Positions 7,501 to 18,213 of a DNA stretch of 32,000 nucleotides are shown here, piece by piece. The translations under genes were made by a program, and so were the position numbers. This stretch comes from Planctomycetales bacterium (GTDB taxonomy: Bacteria > 4484-113 > JAFGCY01): contig CP060262.1 in NCBI GenBank assembly GCA_022646745.1, forward strand, positions 2,850,001-2,882,000, written 5' to 3'. Under the pieces are notes generated by a model, which ran no database searches, was not told the DNA's origin, and worked only from the letters and a program-made list of their open reading frames with translations. The first letter of the stretch is position 1. Each line of letters opens with the position of its first letter.

Positions 7501-8130
7501 ATGAACACCGTAAGCGCCCTGGTGGCAACTGCAGCCGTGGCTGCTGCCGCAATAACCGGAGCAAGCATCTGGCTTAGCGGCATTAGGGTCTCAGAGTCAG
7601 ACAACTGGGTTCCGGTTCCGGCCGTCACCCAGGAAGAAGCCCTGGAATTCAAGAAAAGGAAGCGAGAGATGGCACGCAGTTCTGAGGAATGGAAGGATAA
7701 GGTCAAGGACAAGCTCAGTGCCAACGAGATGAATGTCTGCTTTGGTGCAGGTACTGAGCCGCCTTTCACAGGCAAGTACTGGGACCACCACGAGAAGGGG
7801 CACTACGAGTGCACCGTCTGCGGGCAGAACCTGTTCAGCTCTGACACCAAGTACGACAGTGGCAGTGGCTGGCCTTCCTTCTACGATGTGGTAGAAAAGA
7901 GCAACCTCAAGCTGGAGGAGGACCTTTCCCTTGGCATGCGCCGGGTAGAAGTGCTCTGCAGCAACTGCGGTTCACATCTGGGACATGTGTTTGACGATGG
8001 TCCGGAGCCGACCGGCCTGCGTTATTGCATCAACTCAGCTTCGCTCCAGTTTATTGCCGATGATGGCAGCTCTGAGGCTGAAGCCGGACAGGCAGGAGCA
8101 GGTGATCGGGATGCAGGTGAGGAGCATTAG
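7501..8130 (+). CDS. msrB: peptide-methionine (R)-S-oxide reductase MsrB with N-terminal hydrophobic anchor
   Basis: SelR domain: GTEPPFTGKYW, two Zn CxxC pairs (CTVCGQ, CSNCGS), GHVFDDGP, and catalytic Cys in RYCINSASL. The N-terminus MNTVSALVATAAVAAAAITGASIWL is a TM or signal-anchor-like segment. Confidence 0.9.
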   Translation: MNTVSALVATAAVAAAAITGASIWLSGIRVSESDNWVPVPAVTQEEALEFKKRKREMARSSEEWKDKVKDKLSANEMNVCFGAGTEPPFTGKYWDHHEKGHYECTVCGQNLFSSDTKYDSGSGWPSFYDVVEKSNLKLEEDLSLGMRRVEVLCSNCGSHLGHVFDDGPEPTGLRYCINSASLQFIADDGSSEAEAGQAGAGDRDAGEEH

Positions 8131-8192: not shown

Positions 8193-9089
8193 ATGATAAT
8201 CCAGATGCTTCTGACAGGGGTCGTCATCCCTGGCATCGTTGCCCTGGCTCTGGCACTCTTCTTCTGGCCGGCAAGGAAACCGGGAAGGAAGCCGGGCCGC
8301 CTGCCACACTGGATGGGTGGGGTTGTCCTGGCCGTGACTTTCCTGACCGGCTGGATCCTGACCCGGGGCTGGCCTGATTGGCCAGTTCGTGAGTCCGCTG
8401 CATGGCTGCCATGGCTGGCCGTCGGCGGGGCGGTGCTCGGATGGCTGGTTGCTCACCAGCGCCTGCCCGGTCCAACAGTAGCCATGCTACGGATGCTGGT
8501 TAGTGTTGTCACCATCTGGGCCACTACCCAGAGCCTGCAGACCCATACCTGGCAGAAGGCAGCCTGGCTGTGGATAATCGGTCTTGCGCTAGTGCTGTTT
8601 GCCGCGTGGTCAATCTGGGAGTCCGTGCTTGCAAAGCGGCAGGGAGTGCTGCCTCCGCTCCTGCTGACCGGTTTCTTCAGTTGCCTGGCAATCATGGCGT
8701 TGCTGGGCAGGACCGCAACGGTCAGCCAGACAACTGGCATCCTCTGCGCCGGATTGGGTGCCTTTTTTGTGGTGTCATTGGTCAGGCGTGACCTGGATCT
8801 TTCCCAGTCCACACTCTTCGTTGCCATGCCGCTCCTTGCTGGCCTGGTTGTTAACGCCCACTTCTACGCCTACATGGATGTGCTGCAGACCATGCTGCTG
8901 ATGGCATGCTGCCTGGCGGTGCTGCTGGCGGTACGGTTCACGCCAGAGGAGCCGCAGTTTGCCGGACTGCTGCTGGCCCTGCTGATCACCGTCCTGCCGG
9001 CGCTAGGCGGAATCGCCTGGGACCTGCTCAACAGCAATGTCCAGACCAGTTCCTCGGAAGAGGAAGATCCCTACGCAGAGTACTTCTAG
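8193..9089 (+). CDS. hypothetical polytopic membrane protein (about 8 TM)
   Basis: 298-aa ORF that is almost entirely hydrophobic helices, with an acidic C-terminal tail (SSSEEEDPYAEYF). GGAG lies 8 nt upstream of the ATG. No recognisable family motif. Confidence 0.6.
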   Translation: MIIQMLLTGVVIPGIVALALALFFWPARKPGRKPGRLPHWMGGVVLAVTFLTGWILTRGWPDWPVRESAAWLPWLAVGGAVLGWLVAHQRLPGPTVAMLRMLVSVVTIWATTQSLQTHTWQKAAWLWIIGLALVLFAAWSIWESVLAKRQGVLPPLLLTGFFSCLAIMALLGRTATVSQTTGILCAGLGAFFVVSLVRRDLDLSQSTLFVAMPLLAGLVVNAHFYAYMDVLQTMLLMACCLAVLLAVRFTPEEPQFAGLLLALLITVLPALGGIAWDLLNSNVQTSSSEEEDPYAEYF

Positions 9090-9103
9090 CCTGACGCAGC
9101 GTT

Positions 9104-9631
9104 TCAGAGGCTGGCAATCAGGTGTTCCCGGCAGGACCGCGGACCTGTACGATGCATCAGCAGCAGCGCGGGCCGCAACCGGCCCCTGCGGCTGAGCCTG
9201 ACTGGCAGGATATGGAAGCGGCGCAGGCCGAGCCGCAGTTCCAGCCTGGCAATCTCCACCCGGCTGACGGCAATTCCCTTGGACTGGCAGAATTGCAGGA
9301 AGGCGAGGGCGTCGCGCTCGTGGCGCATGTGGCCTTCAGGCCAGTACCGGTCAGCGTAATCCTCGAAGATGGCCCGGCAGAATCCGGGGTTGCCAAAACT
9401 GCTCTCCGGCAGCAGTTCCAGTACAGCGCGCCAGCGTTTGGCAACAAGGGTCCCGCGCTGGGCAAGCAGGTCCTCCGCGGGAATCGCCAGCAGGGCAGAC
9501 CGGGCTGCCGGATCCGCAGCGTTGTCATCCAGCCATCCTGCCCGGTCGGAGATGAAGCTGCCAAGCCTGCCGCCGTCTGACAGCAGCCGCGCCAGCAGCA
9601 CCTGCTCAGTTGCCAGTTCAGGCTGCCGCAT
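9104..9631 (-). CDS. hypothetical protein; candidate MNIO partner subunit (MbnC/TglI/DUF2063-like by position)
   Basis: 175-aa ORF whose ATG (9629-9631) lies 14 nt inside the 3' end of the DUF692 gene. It is soluble and helical-looking, and ARLELRL loosely recalls the DUF2063 C-terminal region. The partner role is inferred from position only. Confidence 0.55.
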   Translation of the reverse strand: MRQPELATEQVLLARLLSDGGRLGSFISDRAGWLDDNAADPAARSALLAIPAEDLLAQRGTLVAKRWRAVLELLPESSFGNPGFCRAIFEDYADRYWPEGHMRHERDALAFLQFCQSKGIAVSRVEIARLELRLGLRRFHILPVRLSRRGRLRPALLLMHRTGPRSCREHLIASL

Positions 9632-10397
9632 GCAGGGCCTCCAGTTCAGCTATGATCTCCGCCGGCCGGGCCTGGCTGTCATCTCGCTCAAGGATCACCG
9701 CTTCCGGCTGGTGCGATTCCATGACCAGGCCGATCAGTTCCAGCAGGTCCGCCTGCAGGGGCTGGTCGTGGGAATCATGGTAGCGGCCATTGCCATCCAG
9801 CTGGTAACCGACCACATGCAGCTGCACAACCAGCTCCGCGGGGACCAGCTCTAGCCAGCGCTGGGGATCAAAGCCATGGTTGCGCGCATTGATGAACAGG
9901 TTCGTGACATCAAGCAGCAGCCTGCAGTCTGCCCGCCTGCACAATTCCACCAGGAACTCGTTTTCCGGCATGTCACCTTGCAGCCTGATGCTGCTGGTGA
10001 TGTTTTCCAGCAGCAGCGGGCGTTCAAGCCGTTCCTGCAGCTCCTGTGCATTGCTCGCGATGGTCTGCAGGTTGGCGCGTGTCGGGGACAGTGGGTTGAG
10101 GTGCCCGAGGTCGATTCCCCCGGCGCGGGTGAAGGCTACGTGCTCGCTGATCCAATGTGGCTGGCAGGCATCGCAGACCTGCTTGAAGCCCCGCAGGTAT
10201 TCCTCATCCATCGGCCCGGGGGTTCCCAGTGAACAGCTCAGGCCATGCACGAACACTGGGTAGCGTCCGGACAATTCAGCCAGCTGCTGCCTGCCGGAAT
10301 CAAGGAAGTGGTCAGGCACTATCTCCAGGCACTGGATCCTGTCATCTCCAATGCTGATCATACCTGCGAGGTTGCGCCGCCAGCCGATGCCGATCAT
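9618..10397 (-). CDS. DUF692 / MNIO (multinuclear non-heme iron-dependent oxidative) family enzyme
   Basis: TIM-barrel DUF692 motif series: MIGIGWRR, FVHGLSCSLG, ISEHVAF, LLLENI, LLDVTNLFINARNHG, LHVVGY, YHDSHDQPL, VILERDD. I prefer the ATG at 10395-10397, which forms an ATGA overlap with the upstream stop. The longer ORF start at 10436 is a TTG inside the upstream gene. Confidence 0.85.
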   Translation of the reverse strand: MIGIGWRRNLAGMISIGDDRIQCLEIVPDHFLDSGRQQLAELSGRYPVFVHGLSCSLGTPGPMDEEYLRGFKQVCDACQPHWISEHVAFTRAGGIDLGHLNPLSPTRANLQTIASNAQELQERLERPLLLENITSSIRLQGDMPENEFLVELCRRADCRLLLDVTNLFINARNHGFDPQRWLELVPAELVVQLHVVGYQLDGNGRYHDSHDQPLQADLLELIGLVMESHQPEAVILERDDSQARPAEIIAELEALHAAA

Positions 10398-11104
10398 CCG
10401 CAACCCCCGCAACCGCCTCCGCAGCCTCCGCCACAACCTCCGCCGCAGCTGCTGCAGGATGTGCAGCCAGCCACCCCATAGCCACCGCGGCCGTCATTCA
10501 TGCTTGTCACGCTCGACAGGAATGCCATGCTGCCGATTCCCATCAGGATGACCATGTAGGTCCACTTGTGCATGCCATGCTGGATACCGTAGAGGTAGCG
10601 CTCCGCACCGATCAGCAGGAAGAAGCCCAGGCCGATGAAATTCAGCCCGTCATGCTTGCCGATCATCTGCCGCAGGATATGTACGGCGGCCACCATCAGG
10701 ACTCCGATGATGGCGTAATAAACGAGGAATTCCGGACCCTTGAGGAATGGGAACATCAGGTAACTGACCACTCCTGTAGCCAGTCCGACCAGTGCCATCG
10801 ATCCGAAAACGGCACTGGCCCTGCCGGAATCAAACTCTGCAGCTGAGCTCGTTGTTTCCAGCGGTGGCAAGCTCTGGTTCAGTGCCACGGATGGTGATGA
10901 CTGCAACTGGACTATGCCTGGCGATGCCTGAGGTTCATAGGAATGTTCCTCGTGCCATGGAAGTGCTTCATGCAGGCGGAATGTGGCTCCACAGTTGCTG
11001 CACTGCTGCAGCATGCCGGGGAAATGCTTGCTGGGAAGCTCAAAACGCCGCAGGCAGCTCGGGCAGCGCAGGAACTGGTCCTGCTCCCGGCTCACAGCTC
11101 CCAC
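10394..11104 (-). CDS. zinc-ribbon / 4-TM membrane protein with C-terminal Cys-Gly repeat tail; putative MNIO substrate (TIGR04222-like)
   Basis: GTG start at 11104 or 11095. N-terminal CPSC-x17-CSNC zinc ribbon and a Ser/Pro/Gln linker. Four hydrophobic helices, including a GPEFLVYY helix start. The tail is GCTSCSSCGGGCGGGCGGGCGGCG followed by the stop. Confidence 0.8.
   Translation of the reverse strand: MGAVSREQDQFLRCPSCLRRFELPSKHFPGMLQQCSNCGATFRLHEALPWHEEHSYEPQASPGIVQLQSSPSVALNQSLPPLETTSSAAEFDSGRASAVFGSMALVGLATGVVSYLMFPFLKGPEFLVYYAIIGVLMVAAVHILRQMIGKHDGLNFIGLGFFLLIGAERYLYGIQHGMHKWTYMVILMGIGSMAFLSSVTSMNDGRGGYGVAGCTSCSSCGGGCGGGCGGGCGGCG
10397..10465 (-). repeat. coding tandem repeat (TGY GGN GGN GGN) specifying the CTSCSSC(GGGC)3GGCG tail
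   Basis: Minus-strand codons read tgc aca tcc tgc agc agc tgc ggc gga ggt tgt ggc gga ggc tgc gga ggc ggt tgc ggg ggt tgc gga tga. Synonymous codons differ between repeat units. Confidence 0.9.
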
Positions 11105-11838
11105 CTGCCAGCCATGTAATCCAATGCTCCCTGCAGGACGTCCAGCAGCTGCCTGTGCAGCTCATGGATGTCCGCTGATCGATCACTACCTTCGCGCAGT
11201 CCGATCAGTGTGTCGAGCAGGGCCTGTTCTATTCCGAGCTCCCGCGCCAGCAGGGGCGCCTGCAGCCGGCGCTCATCTGGAACCTCGCTGCCTTCCAGGC
11301 GCAGCAGTTCAGCCAGGTCGGCGAAGATACGCGGTACCGCACCACGCAGTATCCGCAGGTATCGCTCCGGCTGGTCCGTGTTCTGGATGTAGGCATTGCC
11401 GAGCCGCATCCAGCTGTTTCGCAGGCCCTGCTCCAGCAGGAACTGCCGGCGAGGGATAGAGACTTCGAAACCACTGAATGGGTCAGTCCCATACAGTAGT
11501 TCATCCCGGCGGGCGATATCGGAGAACTTAAGCGCGAAGGCCTGCATGCTTCGATCCAGGCCCTTGCTGGACAGTACAAGCGGACTGATGTTCAGTCCAC
11601 TGTCCCTGATTGTCTGGGAAATGCTGCGCTGGGCTGCCGCCGTGTTCTGCTTCAGCACAATGAGCAGGTTGATGTCAGAGCTGCCGCGACTGAAGTCATT
11701 GCGGACGGAGCTGCCGTACAACACAAGGCTTTCCAGGTTGTCCCCCAATGAGGAAGCAAATGTATCACGCAGTCCATCCATCGAACTGCGCAGCTGCTGG
11801 GTGATGGGCATGCAAGTAGTGTAGGGGAGTAGCCCCAT
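11092..11838 (-). CDS. nucleotidyltransferase-fold protein (KNTase/MNT-like N-domain plus helical C-domain), degenerate active-site motif
   Basis: LVLYGSSVRNDFSRGSSDINLLIVL matches the pol-beta NTase G-S...D-x-D pattern, except that the second acidic residue is Asn (DIN). Stop TGA at 11092-11094 overlaps the next gene's GTG. An alternative ATG exists at 11811. Confidence 0.7.
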   Translation of the reverse strand: MGLLPYTTCMPITQQLRSSMDGLRDTFASSLGDNLESLVLYGSSVRNDFSRGSSDINLLIVLKQNTAAAQRSISQTIRDSGLNISPLVLSSKGLDRSMQAFALKFSDIARRDELLYGTDPFSGFEVSIPRRQFLLEQGLRNSWMRLGNAYIQNTDQPERYLRILRGAVPRIFADLAELLRLEGSEVPDERRLQAPLLARELGIEQALLDTLIGLREGSDRSADIHELHRQLLDVLQGALDYMAGRWEL

Positions 11839-11855
11839 CCCGTAAATCAGTAAGC

Positions 11856-11886
11856 AAAAAAAAAGGGCGACCCCGGAGGGTCGCCC
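11856..11886 (-). terminator. intrinsic terminator downstream of the porin gene
   Basis: The minus strand reads GGGCGACCC-TCCG-GGGTCGCCC followed by nine T. This is a perfect 9-bp GC stem beginning 15 nt after the porin TAA. Confidence 0.85.
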
Positions 11887-11901
11887 AGTTCAGTTCTGGA
11901 A

Positions 11902-13590
11902 TTAGAACTTGAAGATCCAGTCCAGCTGGATGGTCTGATGATCATCCAGGTTGTTCGGGATCAGGAAGCCGTAGGCGTTGTGCATCTTGGAAAGGATGTA
12001 GGTCACGCCGACGGTCGCGTTCGGGCTCCACATGTACTGCCAGCCCCACTCGAAGGAGTTACGGTTGGCACCACCGGTGTCGCTGTCAGCAAGGCCGTGG
12101 ATCACGGTGTTGGCACCGATCTCCTTGTAACGGGCATAGGTGTACCAGTCACCGCAGTGAGCAGGCTTGGTGCCGTACTGGCCGCCCACGACGAAACCGG
12201 TATCATCGGTGTCCTCGTAGATGAAGCCGGAGGCAAGGCCGCCGTTCACGATGGCGATGTTGGTGTCAGCGTCGCTATCGCAGGTGAACATGTACTCACC
12301 GTAGATGCTCAGCGGCTTGTCCCAGGTGCAGGGCCAGGTGTACTGGAGGCCAGCCTTGGTGACGCTGAAGTTGCTGTTGAAGCGATCGAGGCCGTTGATG
12401 ACGCCGTCGCCGTTGAAGTCGAAGATGCTGCCGTCAGCCAGGGTAAAACCGTTGCCGGTGAAGTAGCTGGCGGGCAGGTTGTTCTCTTCCTTCCAGCCGT
12501 AGCTGCCGACCCACACGTCGAGGTTATCGACGAGGAAGTTGTCGTGACGCAGCTCGGTGGCGAAGAAGTAGGTGTCATCATCGAAGTAGTCGCTGCCGTT
12601 GACCTCAACCGCCACGGAGGCGACGCTGGTCAGCTGGAAGTCCTCGTTGAAGTGGTACATGATGCCGAGACCCTGAAGGTTCACGTCATCGTCGAGGATC
12701 ATCTCGTTCGGGTCGGTCAGGATGTTCGGGAAGATACCACCGTAGATGTCAAGCTTGGCATGGCAGGTGCAACCTTCCTTCTTGCCGCAGCTGTTGCAAC
12801 CGCTGTTGCACTGGCCGCAGCTACCGCCGCAACTGTTACCGTTGCAGCTGCTGCACTTGTCGCAGCAATCCTTCTCGGGGCAGTCCTGGTAATAACCGAA
12901 CCAGCTCGGGCTGTACTTGAAGTAAGCCTGATCGAGGAAGATGTCAGCGGTACGACCGTTGTTACCAAGGGTCCAGTTGCCGCTGGTGGCATCGTTACCG
13001 GTGTTGGTCTCCAGACGGAAGCCAACCATCACGCAGTCGTTGATCTGCTTGTTGTAACCAAGACGGAAACGAATACGCTGACGGAAACGCTCGTTGTTGG
13101 CCCAGTCCTCAAACTGCCAACGGTAGCGCAGCTCGCCCTTCCACTCCGGACCCGGCTTGAGACCGGAGACCTTGTCCTCGAGGGAGCCAATACGGTTAGT
13201 GTTGTCCGCGACACTACCCTCAAGGTCCGTCATGGTGGAATGCATATCGTTCACCTGGTTACCCAGGGCATCAACTTTCCCGCCGAGGCTGGCAAGCTGA
13301 TCAGAGAATTCCGCGCGAAGGGTTTCGGCCATGATGTTGATGTCTTCAGGAGAGCCCTCACCAACCGTGTCCAGCAGACGAGCAATTGCCTGAGCGAACT
13401 CGTAGCGGGTCAGGGTGCGGTCTCCCTTGAAGAATCCATCCGGATAACCTTCGAGCACACCACGGTGCGTAAGGTAATCCAGAGCGTTGTACGCCCAGTG
13501 ATCAGTGCTGACATCGTCATACGCGCTCTGCGCGAATGCCGTACCACACATGATCACCAGAGCCAGCAGTGAAGAAATAAGATATCTCAC
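11902..13590 (-). CDS. SLH-domain outer-membrane beta-barrel porin with coiled-coil linker
   Basis: Signal peptide RYLISSLLALVIMCGTAFA/QS. SLH motif DVSTDHWAYNALDYLTHRGVLEGYPDGFFKGDRTLTRYEFAQAIARLL. A coiled-coil segment is followed by alternating aromatic beta-strand pattern and a C-terminal IQLDWIFKF. AGGAG sits 6 nt before the GTG at 13590; the ORF track's TTG at 13596 abuts the SD. Confidence 0.85.
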   Translation of the reverse strand: MRYLISSLLALVIMCGTAFAQSAYDDVSTDHWAYNALDYLTHRGVLEGYPDGFFKGDRTLTRYEFAQAIARLLDTVGEGSPEDINIMAETLRAEFSDQLASLGGKVDALGNQVNDMHSTMTDLEGSVADNTNRIGSLEDKVSGLKPGPEWKGELRYRWQFEDWANNERFRQRIRFRLGYNKQINDCVMVGFRLETNTGNDATSGNWTLGNNGRTADIFLDQAYFKYSPSWFGYYQDCPEKDCCDKCSSCNGNSCGGSCGQCNSGCNSCGKKEGCTCHAKLDIYGGIFPNILTDPNEMILDDDVNLQGLGIMYHFNEDFQLTSVASVAVEVNGSDYFDDDTYFFATELRHDNFLVDNLDVWVGSYGWKEENNLPASYFTGNGFTLADGSIFDFNGDGVINGLDRFNSNFSVTKAGLQYTWPCTWDKPLSIYGEYMFTCDSDADTNIAIVNGGLASGFIYEDTDDTGFVVGGQYGTKPAHCGDWYTYARYKEIGANTVIHGLADSDTGGANRNSFEWGWQYMWSPNATVGVTYILSKMHNAYGFLIPNNLDDHQTIQLDWIFKF

Positions 13591-13737
13591 TTCCAACTCC
13601 TATTGATAGTGGGTTGAAATACATGCGGGAAGACAGCGCGCCATCCCGACTTGCTCCCTTCGCGAGATCTTCACTCTGGATAACCGGCATCTATAACCTC
13701 AGAAATCCTTCACGCAGATCCCACTTCGGGATTCGCC

Positions 13738-13765
13738 ATTGTAACACAGTATTTCGAGTTGAAAA
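13738..13765 (-). promoter_or_regulatory. candidate sigma70-type promoter for the porin gene
   Basis: Minus strand: TTTTCA, 16-nt spacer, then TGT-TACAAT (extended -10). It lies in the only AT-rich stretch of the region and would give a leader of roughly 135-140 nt. Confidence 0.3.
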
Positions 13766-13920
13766 CATAAAATTTCCACTCAAATGTCACAGGGACACCG
13801 TATTACTCTGGCGCTCAGGAATAAATCGGTCCAGCCTGCTCAATCATTAATCCCATGCGGGTTTTTGGGGTGAAATTGAGCCAAAATTCCGGCTGTCTCG
13901 ATAGGGCCAGGAATTGCAAA

Positions 13921-14694
13921 CTAAAGCACTACACCTTTGTATATGTAGGCGGTTCCCCAGCACAGCCTGTGCTTCTCGATATGGCCGAATCTGCCTGAGG
14001 AGCGCATTTTCGCCACGAACTGGTCCCCACTCGGGAAATTTGCCGCACTCTTATGCAGGTAGTTATAAGCCTGCATACTGCCGGACACCAGTCCACCGAC
14101 CAATGGAATAACGAAGCGGCTGTAAACGTAATAAGCAGGTTTCATGAAGGCGCCGTCCGGTTGGCCGGTCTCCAGCACCATCACGCAACCCCCCGGCTTG
14201 ACCACGCGGGCCATCTCGCGCATCGCCCGTACGGGGTCCGGCACATTGCGCAGGCCGAATCCGATGCTCGCCACATTGAAGGAATCATCCGAATAGGGCA
14301 GGTTCATCACGTCAGCATGCTCGAAGCTGACCAGTTCGCGACCCTTCATCGGCCGCTGCATGCCGCGCTCCATCATTTCAGTTGTGATGTCGGAGGCGAT
14401 CACGCTGCCGCTCGCGCCGGTCACCCTCGCAAAGGAAAAGGCGATATCTCCTGTGCCGCTTGCGCAGTCCAGCACGCGCATCCCCGGTTGGGCTCCACTA
14501 AGCTGCACCAGCAGGCGTTTCCAGCGCATGTGCTGCCCGAAGCTGATCAGGTTGTTGCTGAGGTCATAACTCGGGGCCAGGGTCGCGAACATCTGGCGAA
14601 TGCTGTGGGGATTGGAGGAACTGGGCTGCACTGGAGCATAATAACAGAGTTGGCAGCGGCTCCTGCAACCGCAGGGCCAGCCTTTGCGTAACAC
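13921..14694 (-). CDS. ubiE: demethylmenaquinone / ubiquinone C-methyltransferase (UbiE/MenG family)
   Basis: MFATLAPSYDLSNNLISFGQHMRWKR, SAM motif VLDCASGTGDIA, GFGLRNVPD, and VKPGGCVMVLE. The start is uncertain: the GTG at 14694 is only 11 nt from the divergent gene, and the ATG at 14592 (MFATLAPSYD) is an alternative. Confidence 0.8.
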   Translation of the reverse strand: MLRKGWPCGCRSRCQLCYYAPVQPSSSNPHSIRQMFATLAPSYDLSNNLISFGQHMRWKRLLVQLSGAQPGMRVLDCASGTGDIAFSFARVTGASGSVIASDITTEMMERGMQRPMKGRELVSFEHADVMNLPYSDDSFNVASIGFGLRNVPDPVRAMREMARVVKPGGCVMVLETGQPDGAFMKPAYYVYSRFVIPLVGGLVSGSMQAYNYLHKSAANFPSGDQFVAKMRSSGRFGHIEKHRLCWGTAYIYKGVVL

Positions 14695-14705
14695 ACATTA
14701 TTAAT

Positions 14706-15431
14706 ATGTCCACAGCCAGGCAACAGCTGGAGCACGGCAAGGCCCGATCACGCCATGACGGCAACCAGGTCTGGGGACTGCTGATTGTGTTCGTGATCGT
14801 GCTGCTGCTGTGGAACACGGTGTTCATCGCTCCACTCAAGCTGCTGGTGGTGTTCTTCCACGAGCTGTCCCATGCCATTGCGGCCATCATCACAGGAGGA
14901 AAAGTGCATGGGATGGAGCTCAACATCCGCGAGGGTGGACTGACCTACCACTCCGGCGGTAACTTCTTCCTGATCGCATCCGCCGGCTACCTCGGTAGCA
15001 TGCTCTGGGGAGCAATGCTGATCCTCGCTGCCCGATTCGTCAAACGCAGGCAGGTGGTGACCTTCCTGCTGGGACTGGTACTGCTCGGCGCGGGCCTGCT
15101 GTTCATGCGGCCAATCTTCGGCTTCGGCTTCATCTTCTGCCTGGTCGTCGGCTTCCTGATGCTGTTCCTCGCCTCACGGGCAGAGGACGGCTGGCATAAC
15201 TTCCTGCTGAAGCTTATCGGCATCACGAGCTGCCTGTATGCCGTACTCGACATCAAGAGTGACATCCTCGACCGCCCACACCTGCACTCTGATGCCGTCG
15301 CCCTGCAGCAGCTTACCCTGATCCCGTCCGTCGTCTGGGGCGTGCTCTGGATGGCACTGTCCATCGCCTGCACCTGGTGGTGCCTGCGGCTGGCAACCCG
15401 CAGGCGGGCAGGGGACGAGACCGGGGACTGA
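14706..15431 (+). CDS. M50B-like membrane metallopeptidase
   Basis: Polytopic membrane protein with HExxH inside a helix (FFHELSHAIAAIITGG), as in the Peptidase_M50B family. Confidence 0.65.
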   Translation: MSTARQQLEHGKARSRHDGNQVWGLLIVFVIVLLLWNTVFIAPLKLLVVFFHELSHAIAAIITGGKVHGMELNIREGGLTYHSGGNFFLIASAGYLGSMLWGAMLILAARFVKRRQVVTFLLGLVLLGAGLLFMRPIFGFGFIFCLVVGFLMLFLASRAEDGWHNFLLKLIGITSCLYAVLDIKSDILDRPHLHSDAVALQQLTLIPSVVWGVLWMALSIACTWWCLRLATRRRAGDETGD

Positions 15432-15528
15432 GCAGGCAAGATTGGGTATGGCAGCCGGGGCCTGCATCCACTAAGATGGAACATCCCGCATGGCCGGAAG
15501 TTGGGCCGGGCATGCCACCGGAGTTGCT

Positions 15529-18213
15529 ATGCGTCGTTTCCTGCCTCTCGCCTGCGCGGCTGTCCTGCTGCTCTTGCCCCGTTCCTCCGCCCAGGCCTGT
15601 AACTACCTGATGGAGCACTATGCCCTTGAACAGGGCACAGGAACCGGACTGGCACAGTACGGGCCGGATCCGCAGCACCTGGTGGCCCCGAGCCGGATGT
15701 TCAACACTGAACATATCCGCCTGGACCTGGACATCGACTTTGACAACGCTTCGGTCAGTGGCAATGTGCAGCAGAGCCTGCGCTCGATGAAGCCGGGGCT
15801 GGATGTGATCCAGCTCAACTGCTCAGGCATCAATGTCCACAAGGTGACGGTTGACGGCAGGGGTGTCGACTTCGAGTACCCGGTGGACAGCGGCCAGCTC
15901 ACCAGCTGGATGTTGATTGATGACGCTGACGACTCCAAGGAGACGCTGTACATCAAGCTGTCAGCACCGCTCGCACTTGACCAGGTGGTCAACCTGCGGA
16001 TTGACTATGACTGCTCCCCGCAGACCGGCCTGTACTTCCAGATGAAGGATGAGGGGACCTACCCCGAGGTCTGGAGCCAGGGTGAGGGTGAGGCCAACCG
16101 CTACTGGATCCCCTGTTTTGACTACCCGAATGACAAGGCCAGCTATGAGGGTATCTTCCGTGTGCCTGAGGGTTTCTACGCATTGTCAAATGGCAACCTG
16201 CTCAGCCGGGAGGACAAGAACGGGAAGACCGAATTCCACTGGTCACTGGAGCAGCCGCAGGTCAGCTACCTGATAATGCTCGCCGCCGCCCCCTATGAGG
16301 TGCATGAGCAGGAGCACAACGGTGTGCTCTACCAGTACGTCTGCCCGCCGGGCACCAGCCGGGCGAAGGCCCTGCAGTGCTTCGGCAAGACACCGGACAT
16401 GATGGACTGCTTCGAGGACCGATTCGGGATCAAGTACCCGTTTGAGAAATACTCACAGGTTGTCGTGCAGAACTTCATCTTCGGCGGGATGGAGAACACC
16501 ACCGCCACAGTGATGAACGACCGACTGCTGTATGACGAGTTCCAGGCGCTGACCTATGACGACACCGACACCATCTCGCATGAGCTGGGGCACCAGTGGT
16601 GGGGCGACATGGTCACCATGCGCGAGTGGAACCACATGTGGCTCAATGAGGGCTTTGCCAAGTACTCGGAGGAGATCTACCGCGGCTGGGACCTCGGTGA
16701 GGATGCCGTACACGTCAGCATGGACGGGGCGCACCGCTCGGTGATCCGCAATGACAACCGCAATGCACGGCCGCTGGTGACGGAGTTCTACAACCGGATT
16801 GACGACCGCAACAACAACAACATCTACGACAAGGGTGCCAGCGTGCTGCACATGCTGCGCAGCATCATCGGCGATGAGCTGTTCTTCGCCGTGCTGAAGC
16901 ACTATGGCAACAAGCACCGCTTCGACTTCGCCGAGACCCCGGACCTGCAGACCAGCGTCAAGGAAGTGACCGGGCAGAACCTGGACTGGTTCTTCGAGCA
17001 GTGGGTCTACATGGCGGGCCACCCGAAGCTCAAGGTCGCGCAGAAGTGGGACCGCGAGCGTGGCAACCTGACGCTGTCAATTGAGCAGACGCAGGAGGTG
17101 AAGGACCTCGTGCCCCTGTTCCGCCTGCCGATGCAGGTGGAAGTGACAACGGCAAGCGGCGCGCGGCTTTACCAGATCCAGGTGGACAAGGCCAGTGAGG
17201 ACTTCAATTTCCCGGTGGACGGCGAGCCGCTGATGGTGATTGTTGACAAGGGCGACTGGATCCCGAAGGAACTCGAGATGGAGCGCAGCCGTGAGCAGTG
17301 GCTGTTCATGCTTGCGCATGGCGAGGGCATCGACCGCCTGCATGCGACCCGCGCACTGAAGCAGTGGGCCGGAAATGATGATGTGTTCACCGCCCTGGCC
17401 GCGCGCGTCAACGACACGAAGGAGCACCGCTACCTGCGCACCGAGGCGCTGGATTCCATGACGGACTTGCGGGACGACCGCACCTACGAATTCCTGGTCG
17501 GACTGAGCGCTGACAAGGAAGGACGCCTGCGTCGCGACAGCGCCGGCATGCTGCGCAACTTCAAGGGCCGCGAGGGACTGGCTGAGCTGCTGGTCGGATT
17601 GATCCACGATGACCCGGCCTGGGATGTGAAGGGCAGGGCGCTGGACTCGCTGGTTTCCATCGACTATGAGAAGGAGAAGTGCATCGAGGAATGCCTGTAT
17701 GTGATCAGCCTCAGTGGCGACAAGCACAACATGGTGCGCAGCGGGCTGAATGCGCTGGACCGGCTGCGTGCTGACGACAAGGTGGACATGGTCAGGGAAC
17801 TGGCCGCGCCGGGCAACAGCCGGGACTACCGCCATACCGCGATCGGCACATATGCCAACATGATGGAGCGGATTGACAACGGCAGCCGCAAGCAGGAAGG
17901 CGCGCAGTACATCGCCACGATGCTGGATGACTCCTGGTCGCGCACGCGCCAGAGCGTGATCGGCACAATCGGCCGGCTGAACACGCGTGACAGCATCGAA
18001 CCGCTGCGCATCATGGCCCAGCTGGAGGAGGTGCAGTGGATTGCAGACTATGCCAACCGGACTGCGGATGAGATAGACAGCTTCCGCGAGGAGAAGGTCA
18101 AGCTGGAGGACCTTGATGCGAAGCTTGCTGAACTGCAGCGCCAGGTGGAGGAACTGACGAAGACGGTCAACCAGCTCAACCGCGAGAAGCAGGAGCAGGA
18201 GATCAATCCGTAG
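15529..18213 (+). CDS. M1 family aminopeptidase (aminopeptidase N-like), secreted, with HEAT-like and coiled-coil C-terminus
   Basis: GGMENTTA exopeptidase motif plus HELGHQWWGD-x-WLNEGF zincin signature. GGAG lies 5 nt before the ATG at 15529, giving signal peptide MRRFLPLACAAVLLLLPRSSAQA. The ORF track's earlier ATG is at 15490. Confidence 0.9.
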   Translation: MRRFLPLACAAVLLLLPRSSAQACNYLMEHYALEQGTGTGLAQYGPDPQHLVAPSRMFNTEHIRLDLDIDFDNASVSGNVQQSLRSMKPGLDVIQLNCSGINVHKVTVDGRGVDFEYPVDSGQLTSWMLIDDADDSKETLYIKLSAPLALDQVVNLRIDYDCSPQTGLYFQMKDEGTYPEVWSQGEGEANRYWIPCFDYPNDKASYEGIFRVPEGFYALSNGNLLSREDKNGKTEFHWSLEQPQVSYLIMLAAAPYEVHEQEHNGVLYQYVCPPGTSRAKALQCFGKTPDMMDCFEDRFGIKYPFEKYSQVVVQNFIFGGMENTTATVMNDRLLYDEFQALTYDDTDTISHELGHQWWGDMVTMREWNHMWLNEGFAKYSEEIYRGWDLGEDAVHVSMDGAHRSVIRNDNRNARPLVTEFYNRIDDRNNNNIYDKGASVLHMLRSIIGDELFFAVLKHYGNKHRFDFAETPDLQTSVKEVTGQNLDWFFEQWVYMAGHPKLKVAQKWDRERGNLTLSIEQTQEVKDLVPLFRLPMQVEVTTASGARLYQIQVDKASEDFNFPVDGEPLMVIVDKGDWIPKELEMERSREQWLFMLAHGEGIDRLHATRALKQWAGNDDVFTALAARVNDTKEHRYLRTEALDSMTDLRDDRTYEFLVGLSADKEGRLRRDSAGMLRNFKGREGLAELLVGLIHDDPAWDVKGRALDSLVSIDYEKEKCIEECLYVISLSGDKHNMVRSGLNALDRLRADDKVDMVRELAAPGNSRDYRHTAIGTYANMMERIDNGSRKQEGAQYIATMLDDSWSRTRQSVIGTIGRLNTRDSIEPLRIMAQLEEVQWIADYANRTADEIDSFREEKVKLEDLDAKLAELQRQVEELTKTVNQLNREKQEQEINP

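Follow-up and report, generated by a model that had tools for sequence, protein, structure and literature searches.

Proteins of the OmpM class have a double role in diderm Terrabacteria, acting as the tether between outer membrane and cell wall and as a general porin (PMC10628300; bioRxiv 10.1101/2021.05.31.446380). In OmpM1 of Veillonella parvula, the junction between stalk and barrel is flexible and touches the periplasmic ends of the strands, and the paper describing it mentions neither cysteine nor disulfide (PMC10628300). Porins are typically without cysteine, apart from MOMP (major outer membrane protein) of chlamydiae, a 16-strand trimeric porin with 8-10 conserved cysteines that are thought to stabilise the envelope by intra- and inter-molecular disulfides, possibly with periplasmic cysteine-rich partners (PMC3723809). 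We have identified an OmpM-type tether porin, encoded at 11902..13596 on the reverse strand of a 32,000-nucleotide stretch of a Planctomycetales bacterium (assembly GCA_022646745.1, contig CP060262.1, positions 2,850,001 to 2,882,000; hereafter the window), which carries a barrel turn, T2, of 52 residues and 12 cysteines that most probably faces the periplasm. The insertion is a new form within the known class of OmpM-type tether porins. Porins are normally cysteine-free with periplasmic turns of a few residues, and the family of the window porin departs from both; in these tether porins of the OmpM type, a single turn on the periplasmic side appears to have grown more than once into a cysteine-rich module under selection. 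All coordinates are those of the window and refer to its reverse strand unless otherwise mentioned.

The assignment to the OmpM type is based on domain, profile and structural matches. Read from a TTG start, the open reading frame (ORF) gives 564 aa; a GTG start at 13590, with AGGAG 6 nt ahead of it, is more likely and gives a product of 562 aa (the sequence-only reading of this DNA had put it at 560), which is 100% identical to the NCBI “putative porin” UNM07438.1. A putative Sec signal peptide can be read from the sequence at the N-terminus (13531..13596, residues 1-22), with the mature protein starting at QSAYDD after ...CGTAFA, and this junction, A-x-A followed by (Q/A/G)SAYDD, is conserved across the porin family alignment. 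Next comes an SLH domain (13393..13521, residues 26-68; Pfam PF00395, E=1.8e-8, above the curated cut-off), which would be the cell-wall-binding end of the periplasmic stalk, then a coiled-coil stalk (13165..13347, residues 84-144) and a 16-strand beta-barrel (11908..13140, residues 153-563) that closes with DWIFKF and a C-terminal Phe. The AlphaFold2 (AF2) model of the whole porin, with a predicted local distance difference test score (pLDDT) of 81.7, contains a signal-peptide helix, the SLH domain, a single long helix at 84-144 and 16 strands at 153-563 as delimited by DSSP. The barrel has a pLDDT mostly above 90; the stalk helix reaches only 41-80, and it recurs in the model of P0012, a relative with two cysteines in T2. 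Pfam Porin_5 (PF16930) is matched with 53.8 bits against a cut-off of 22, in an alignment limited to residues 167-231, and a precomputed Porin_5 domain is present in all close homologues. Moreover, a profile built from 84 members of the family matched OmpM1 over its SLH and stalk region (8bys, E=3.8e-30) and Deinococcus SlpA over its SLH region (7zgx, E=2.4e-22), and a Foldseek search of the PDB returned OmpM1 of V. parvula as all four best matches (8bym, 8bys and 8byt among them) with a probability of 1.00 and TM-scores of 0.71-0.76, normalised by target. By these sequence and model matches, the protein is therefore of the OmpM type of outer-membrane tether and porin, in which the SLH domain would bind the cell wall, a trimer-type coiled-coil stalk would cross the periplasm and the 16-strand barrel would sit in the outer membrane. 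It shares with OmpM1 the signal peptide, SLH domain, coiled-coil stalk and 16-strand barrel, although the barrels are just 12-14% identical and that of the window falls in Pfam Porin_5.

The cysteine-rich insert itself occupies 12760..12882 (residues 239-279 in the TTG numbering) and reads CPEKDCCDKCSSCNGNSCGGSCGQCNSGCNSCGKKEGCTCH. The sequence-only reading had counted its 12 cysteines correctly, in a span of 40 residues that is in fact 41. Cysteine thus makes up 29% of the insert, with gaps of 4, 0, 2, 2, 4, 3, 2, 3, 2, 5 and 1 residues between successive cysteines (four CxxC, one CxC and one CC), and all other residues are G, S, N, K, D, E, Q, T, P or H, with no aromatic or aliphatic residue. 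Elsewhere the protein has few cysteines, as that reading had noticed, namely five (17, in the signal peptide, 188, 423, 439 and 481). At a background of about 1% cysteine, at least 12 cysteines in a given window of 41 residues would be expected by chance with a probability of about 4e-15. Since the same module was found in five further independent assemblies (L001, L002, L005, L079 and L100), it is not an assembly artefact. AF2 gives the insert no confident fold (pLDDT 40-47), a Pfam scan of the insert and its flanks, in the window protein and in P0002, returned zero matches at E<=10, metallothionein families included, and Tandem Repeats Finder reported no repeat in the insert DNA, the sole tandem arrays found being at 10397..10444 in the tail of a neighbouring membrane-protein gene.

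The resemblance to metallothioneins that was initially proposed is therefore one of composition and motifs, and it did not extend to any model match. Metallothioneins such as bacterial SmtA share with the insert the cysteine content and the CxxC, CxC and CC spacing, and are unfolded when metal-free; unlike the insert, which sits in a barrel turn inside an outer-membrane protein of 562 aa, they are free-standing proteins. A survey of the window and of 18 related loci for cysteine-rich proteins left only the porins and the tail proteins adjacent to MNIO genes as credible, the remaining matches being alternative-frame ORFs. Other roles for the cysteines were rejected by reasoning: the CTCH motif is CxCH and not the CxxCH of a heme site, and a Sec-exported, BAM-folded barrel cannot hold an Fe-S cluster assembled in the cytoplasm. 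A lipoprotein was rejected as well, as the V-I-M ahead of Cys17 is not a lipobox and Cys17 is not conserved. In the literature, no paper was found that joins SLH, porin and cysteine-rich.

DSSP places strands 1-8 of the model at 153-165, 168-184, 189-197, 219-228, 281-289, 307-315, 320-330 and 342-351, and strands 9-16 at 359-369, 411-424, 427-439, 466-474, 484-493, 512-524, 527-538 and 553-563. The insert lies in the connection between strands 4 and 5 (12757..12912, residues 229-280, 52 residues), whose flanks SPSWFGYY and KLDIYGG are nearly invariant; its position within the barrel had been recognised, and the exact site is this one rather than between the first strands. Because the stalk must be periplasmic, strand 1 begins in the periplasm and the connection after strand 4 would be a periplasmic turn; the insert stands four strands after the stalk and twelve before the C-terminus, and counting back from the C-terminus yields the same answer. 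Short turns and long loops are the usual pattern of porins. In the model, the remaining even-numbered connections have 2-9 residues and seven of the eight odd-numbered ones 11-41 residues, while the first odd-numbered connection has 2 residues in the window porin and 12 in P0012. Homology points to the same side. The hidden Markov model alignment pairs ...LDRAYVKY at the end of strand 4 with ...IDRAYVDH of OmpM1, the preceding strands being paired too, and its register is fixed by N155 of OmpM1, which sits at the periplasmic end of strand 2 (PMC10628300). The AF2 model of P0012 has the same 16-strand topology with a T2 of 18 residues (pLDDT 67-69), and in distant Porin_5 relatives the connection between strands 4 and 5 is cysteine-free and has 3-8 residues. 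Structure prediction, strand parity and homology thus make it quite probable that the insert is a periplasmic turn, neither at the cell surface nor plugging the pore, and the surface loop or plug put forward in the sequence-only reading is probably wrong.

Across the family, T2 shows a graded history. It is short and cysteine-free in distant relatives, and the Cys-rich insertion is indeed lineage-specific among SLH-anchored porins, as had been supposed; in the subfamily it takes the typical form WFGYYTD-x-DCxxC-x-PKLDIYAG, 18 residues with a conserved Cys pair, each of the two cysteines being present in 74 of the 82 full-length family members. Total cysteine content is 0-2 in distant relatives and has a median of 6-7 in the porin subfamily. 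Turns with 4-9 cysteines occur in several groups with unrelated-looking sequences (CEKPKPTCGGCGGCNECAKCEDLKCEC, EETTTCKDKCGCCEQCTTSTAC, CGDDCMHCDDCDECPECQSC and CGDHCEKCNACAPPPPPGPDC). When cysteine states of the turn were mapped by parsimony on a neighbour-joining tree of the family made without T2, about 4 state changes were obtained; T2 has expanded in about four clades, to 4-15 cysteines. The 12-Cys insert is the extreme of this graded expansion and not a module that arose de novo. In the clade of the window protein there are three paralogues per genome, with 12, 8 and 6 cysteines in the turn; AC1.30 has all three (L002, L004 and L013), and HKST-UBA03 is represented by those with 12 (L001) and 8 (L006). 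The positional orthologues, which adjoin ubiE, have 12 cysteines in the window, L001, L002 and L100, 11 in L005 and 15 in L079.

Among these orthologues, the cysteines were kept while their surroundings changed. Compared with four of them, the window insert retains 12/12, 12/12, 11/12 and 12/12 Cys columns, with spacers 55-93% identical. With L079, to which its overall identity is about 80%, the window protein shares every one of the 12 Cys columns, 16 of 29 spacer residues and 407 of 501 residues elsewhere; with L005 the figures are 11/12 for cysteines and 16/28 for spacers. L100 has its 12 cysteines in shifted spacing. The spacers, made of Gly, Ser, Asn, Lys and Asp, gain and lose residues, and the insert of L079 holds an internal addition of 17 residues. 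Retention of cysteines amid drifting spacers and indels argues that selection acts on the cysteines rather than on any particular fold. In addition, when the family alignment is projected onto the AF2 model, the recurrent cysteines outside T2 and outside the membrane (145 in the linker, 188 in T1, 357/358 in T4, 423 at the end of strand 10, 480/481 in T6 and 527 at the start of strand 15) are all found on the periplasmic side, and Cys188 is confined to members with an expanded T2. Co-occurrence of Cys columns, significant for several pairs (among them 365 with 423, and 188 only with the expanded turn), was rejected as evidence for specific disulfides, being confounded by phylogeny. The porin as a whole is 92-93% identical between L001 or L002 and the window, whereas neighbours in the compared interval (9618..18213) range over 52-79%: 64-67% for MNIO, 52-54% for the tail protein, 61-63% for the NTase-like protein, 75% for ubiE, 77-79% for M50B and 58-74% for M1. 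On these identities, no other gene of the locus comes near the porin in constraint.

Taken together, we favour an explanation in which T2 is a disulfide-linked knob. The porin would be exported by Sec and inserted by BAM, and the thiols of T2 would then form disulfides within the turn, with cysteines of neighbouring periplasmic turns, with other protomers or with partner proteins. The outcome would be a cross-linked knob at the flexible junction of stalk and barrel, stiffening the tether between outer membrane and wall, and the porin gene would be transcribed on its own, apart from the MNIO operon that lies downstream. We give this whole explanation, chemistry and independent gene together, a probability of about 45%. 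A disulfide knob is favoured because T2 is a periplasmic site reached by Sec export, because its ancestral state was a Cys pair, because the cysteines of the family form a periplasmic ring and because MOMP offers a precedent for a porin rich in cysteine. The comparison with MOMP concerns the principle of disulfide cross-linking and implies no homology; the cysteines of MOMP are scattered, mostly over modelled external loops, with neither a single low-complexity module nor an SLH stalk.

Several observations weigh against the disulfide knob. The disulfide state of T2 is a prediction. Cysteine counts of the mature proteins are even in 40 members and odd in 42, which shows no bias toward even numbers and is uninformative, and in many members T2 itself has an odd number (5, 7, 9, 11 or 15). 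Indels in the spacers and the complete lack of hydrophobic residues would be unusual for a packed disulfide knot, and the low pLDDT of the insert (40-47) gives no sign of a confident fold. No Dsb-type gene was found within the window. Besides, the side of T2 comes from strand parity and homology, and its presumed closeness to the threefold axis and the stalk base is drawn from general porin architecture only.

Downstream of the porin lies the MNIO operon, which the sequence-only reading had placed immediately after the porin and had considered a possible partner in metal or thiol chemistry. The genes are indeed co-oriented; an intrinsic terminator and two genes separate the porin from the MNIO gene. 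This terminator (11855..11886), directly 3' of the porin stop, has a 9-bp stem with 8 G-C pairs (hairpin 11886..11865) followed by T9, and its hairpin is kept in L001, L002 and L079 with compensatory stem changes (GGGCGACCC, GGGCGGCCC, GGGTGGCCC). Strong terminators also follow paralogous porin genes. On the 5' side of the porin gene, a promoter-like site (13738..13765; TTTTCA, 16 nt, TACAAT, extended TG) came from a consensus scan that returned 2 sites against 1.8 expected by chance, so it is weak evidence. The operon (9104..11838) has four genes with overlapping starts and stops (GTGA, ATGA and a 14-nt overlap). The first (11092..11838) encodes an NTase-like protein with a weak NTP_transf_2/ANT-like match; it keeps its first position in L001, L002 and L079, and the term nucleotidyltransferase does not occur in the MNIO landscape paper (PMC12452194). 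The second (10394..11104) encodes a 236-aa membrane protein that has a 4-Cys zinc ribbon at its N-terminus, 3-4 hydrophobic segments and, as its tail, GCTSCSSCGGGCGGGCGGGCGGCG (...CSSCGGGCGGGCGGGCGGCG), the third (9618..10397) the MNIO enzyme (DUF692, PF05114, E=7e-70), and the last (9104..9631) a 175-aa protein with no Pfam or NCBIfam match, possibly a partner like the proteins described as “PME-type 2” (PMC12452194). As the MNIO scores fall below the NCBIfam cut-offs for BufB (201 vs 310 bits) and HvfB (171 vs 360 bits), the enzyme would belong to an uncharacterised subfamily. About 1 kb beyond the end of the operon, a divergent gene (7501..8130, forward strand) encodes an MsrB with a SelR domain (E=6e-50) and an N-terminal hydrophobic segment; a SelR gene is also called at the matching position of L079.

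The order of these genes fits the “precursor - MNIO - partner” organisation described for MNIO systems (PMC12452194). Membrane proteins with Cys/Ser/Gly tails, of the TIGR04222 and “adjamnio” types, have been proposed as MNIO substrates, and the TIGR04222 tail is predicted to be periplasmic (PMC12452194). The 236-aa protein is a member of a very widespread membrane-protein family with the ending ...CGGGCGGCGG; among its 118 homologues the anchors differ greatly, yet the sequence nearly always closes with ...CGGGCGGGGCGGCGG[S/D/G] (...CSSCGSSCGGGCGGGGCGGCGG). Whether its tail lies in the cytoplasm or the periplasm hinges on 3 versus 4 hydrophobic segments. Since its gene directly precedes the MNIO gene with an ATGA overlap, the 236-aa protein is the likely substrate, in agreement with the suggestion that the operon acts on a Cys-rich protein. 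Like the insert, such tails are of low complexity in Cys, Ser and Gly, and one is encoded here two genes downstream of the porin. They are C-terminal, however, on inner-membrane anchors and with a nearly invariant GCGGCGG end, whereas the insert is internal, richer in Asn, Lys and Asp and transcriptionally separate from the MNIO operon. In the orthologues with downstream sequence (the window, L001, L002 and L079), the porin is always two genes upstream of MNIO; L005 and L100, the latter a truncated orthologue added by a metagenome scan, end before it. This adjacency may be plain inheritance, as the orthologous genomes share a syntenic stretch of at least 17 kb that runs from the M1 peptidase to Lactamase_B_2. 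Within flanks of up to 10 kb a side, no MNIO gene was found near the 8-Cys paralogues L003, L004 and L006, the 6-Cys L010, L012 and L013, or the 7-Cys relatives P0063 and P0014. The metagenome scan also gave a few contigs of 10-21 kb, which had no MNIO match, most other contigs being of 1.7-3 kb. The co-occurrence of insert and MNIO cluster therefore holds in the four loci and fails locally for the 6-8-Cys relatives. Given the terminator, the inherited synteny and these MNIO-less flanks, a shared role of porin and operon is unsupported at the level of gene organisation, and the most probable target of the operon is its own membrane protein with the Cys/Gly tail rather than the porin.

We consider a metal-thiolate site to be the main rival of the disulfide knob, though a rather doubtful one. 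In this reading, the T2 cysteines would stay reduced and enclose periplasmic clusters of Zn(II), Cu(I) or Cd(II), as in a metallothionein, and since the porin is likely abundant, this would amount to a large periplasmic metal or thiol buffer under the outer membrane. Variable and odd cysteine counts and tolerated spacer indels, awkward for a knot, suit such a site, as do the 29% cysteine content with its CxxC, CxC and CC motifs and the lack of aromatic or aliphatic residues. The disorder of the insert in AF2 also agrees with it, as apo-metallothioneins fold only upon metal binding (PMC7558416). Storage of Cu(I) by cysteine thiolates in the periplasm has a workable precedent in Csp1, which binds 13 Cu(I) (PMC7558416), although Csp1, unlike the insert, is exported by Tat and forms a rigid bundle of four helices. 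Nearby genes include an MNIO operon and one for a membrane-anchored MsrB, yet the window holds no copper or zinc resistance gene, and even at E=10 no Pfam family, metallothioneins included, matched the insert. Moreover, the ancestral state of the turn was just a Cys pair, and the gene looks like a constitutive, monocistronic major-porin gene rather than a metal-regulated one. In diderm bacteria, exported thiols are usually oxidised, which is again unfavourable to a reduced cluster. A different possibility, which we find improbable, is that the expansion has no specific role, a permissive turn having gathered Cys, Gly and Ser codons by slippage or duplication. T2 does vary greatly in length with several unrelated-looking sequences, L079 has its 17-residue internal addition, and in the codon alignment of five orthologues every Cys codon of the insert is TGC. 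Nonetheless, the insert DNA shows no repeat in Tandem Repeats Finder, orthologues with an overall identity of 78-88% retain 11-12 of the 12 Cys columns against a spacer identity of only 55-57%, and conservation across the locus is highest in the porin (92-93% against 52-79% for neighbours).

The remaining alternatives involve the MNIO operon. The porin insert could itself be an MNIO substrate, some of its cysteines being converted before Sec export to copper-binding heterocycles as in bufferins or oxazolins, so that porin and Cys/Gly-tailed protein would form one periplasmic metal-handling system. The constant position, two genes upstream of MNIO, of the orthologues with downstream sequence speaks for this, as does the C/S/G make-up of the insert (CSSC, CGGSC), which resembles the ...CSSCGSSCGGGCGG tails proposed as substrates; MNIO-linked orthologues also carry the largest inserts of the family, 11-15 cysteines against 4-9 elsewhere. 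Even so, we regard it as very unlikely. The conserved strong terminator separates porin and operon, the adjacency sits within synteny that may be inherited, paralogues and relatives whose flanks of up to 10 kb lack an MNIO gene have expanded turns as well, and the expected substrate is the product of the gene that directly precedes and overlaps the MNIO gene. The MNIO landscape paper mentions neither porins nor the outer membrane (PMC12452194). A looser cooperation is likewise unlikely, if less so: a metallothionein-like thiol cluster in T2 of the major tether porin of this uncultured lineage, with 12-15 cysteines per protomer and at least 36 per trimer at the stalk base, would act with the MNIO system and its Cys/Gly-tailed inner-membrane protein, either as a second substrate or as a partner in a metal or redox relay. 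If this is true, it would represent a previously unknown copper or zinc buffering or trafficking across the periplasm.

If T2 is the disulfide cross-linker that we favour, it would be a new means of reinforcing the tether from outer membrane to wall in a poorly known lineage, parallel to the cysteine-rich envelope of chlamydiae. If it binds metal instead, the porin would be nature's equivalent of the engineered porin-metallothionein hybrids and would provide a large metal buffer in the periplasm. Hybrids of LamB and metallothionein have reportedly been made as engineered outer-membrane display. Metallothionein display on outer-membrane carriers is also credited to Valls et al. 2000, as far as the citing article relates it (PMC1533851). 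Both these constructs and the window porin place a cysteine-rich peptide on an outer-membrane barrel protein, but the former are artificial and outward-facing and the latter is natural and most likely faces the periplasm. As for the MNIO operon, attention shifts from the porin to its own candidate substrate, the 236-aa tail protein.

It is worth mentioning that the lineage is labelled inconsistently. The records of L001-L014 and P0001 carry the conflicting labels “UBP7”, “Planctomycetales bacterium” and “bacterium”; the GC content of the window is 60%, which does not fit the 36-53% of published UBP7 genomes. Gracilicutes are reported to lack OmpM, and Planctomycetes have no known tether (bioRxiv 10.1101/2021.05.31.446380). 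An OmpM-type porin here sits oddly with the Planctomycetales labels on some of the related records. The surroundings of the paralogous porin genes also deserve a note. Tandem SLH matches were seen 6-10 kb from the genes of L003, L004, L006, L010 and L013 (at about 17.6-21.6 kb in locus coordinates), and in HKST-UBA01 two porin paralogues, with 8 and 6 cysteines, flank a tandem SLH array on one contig. Finally, directly 3' of the 2-Cys porin gene of L014, a putative ORF of 159 aa (8905..9381 of that locus, forward strand) contains the Cys-rich stretch NCCCATNEILVIQYDEECTEDVCCGGAELGCETC.

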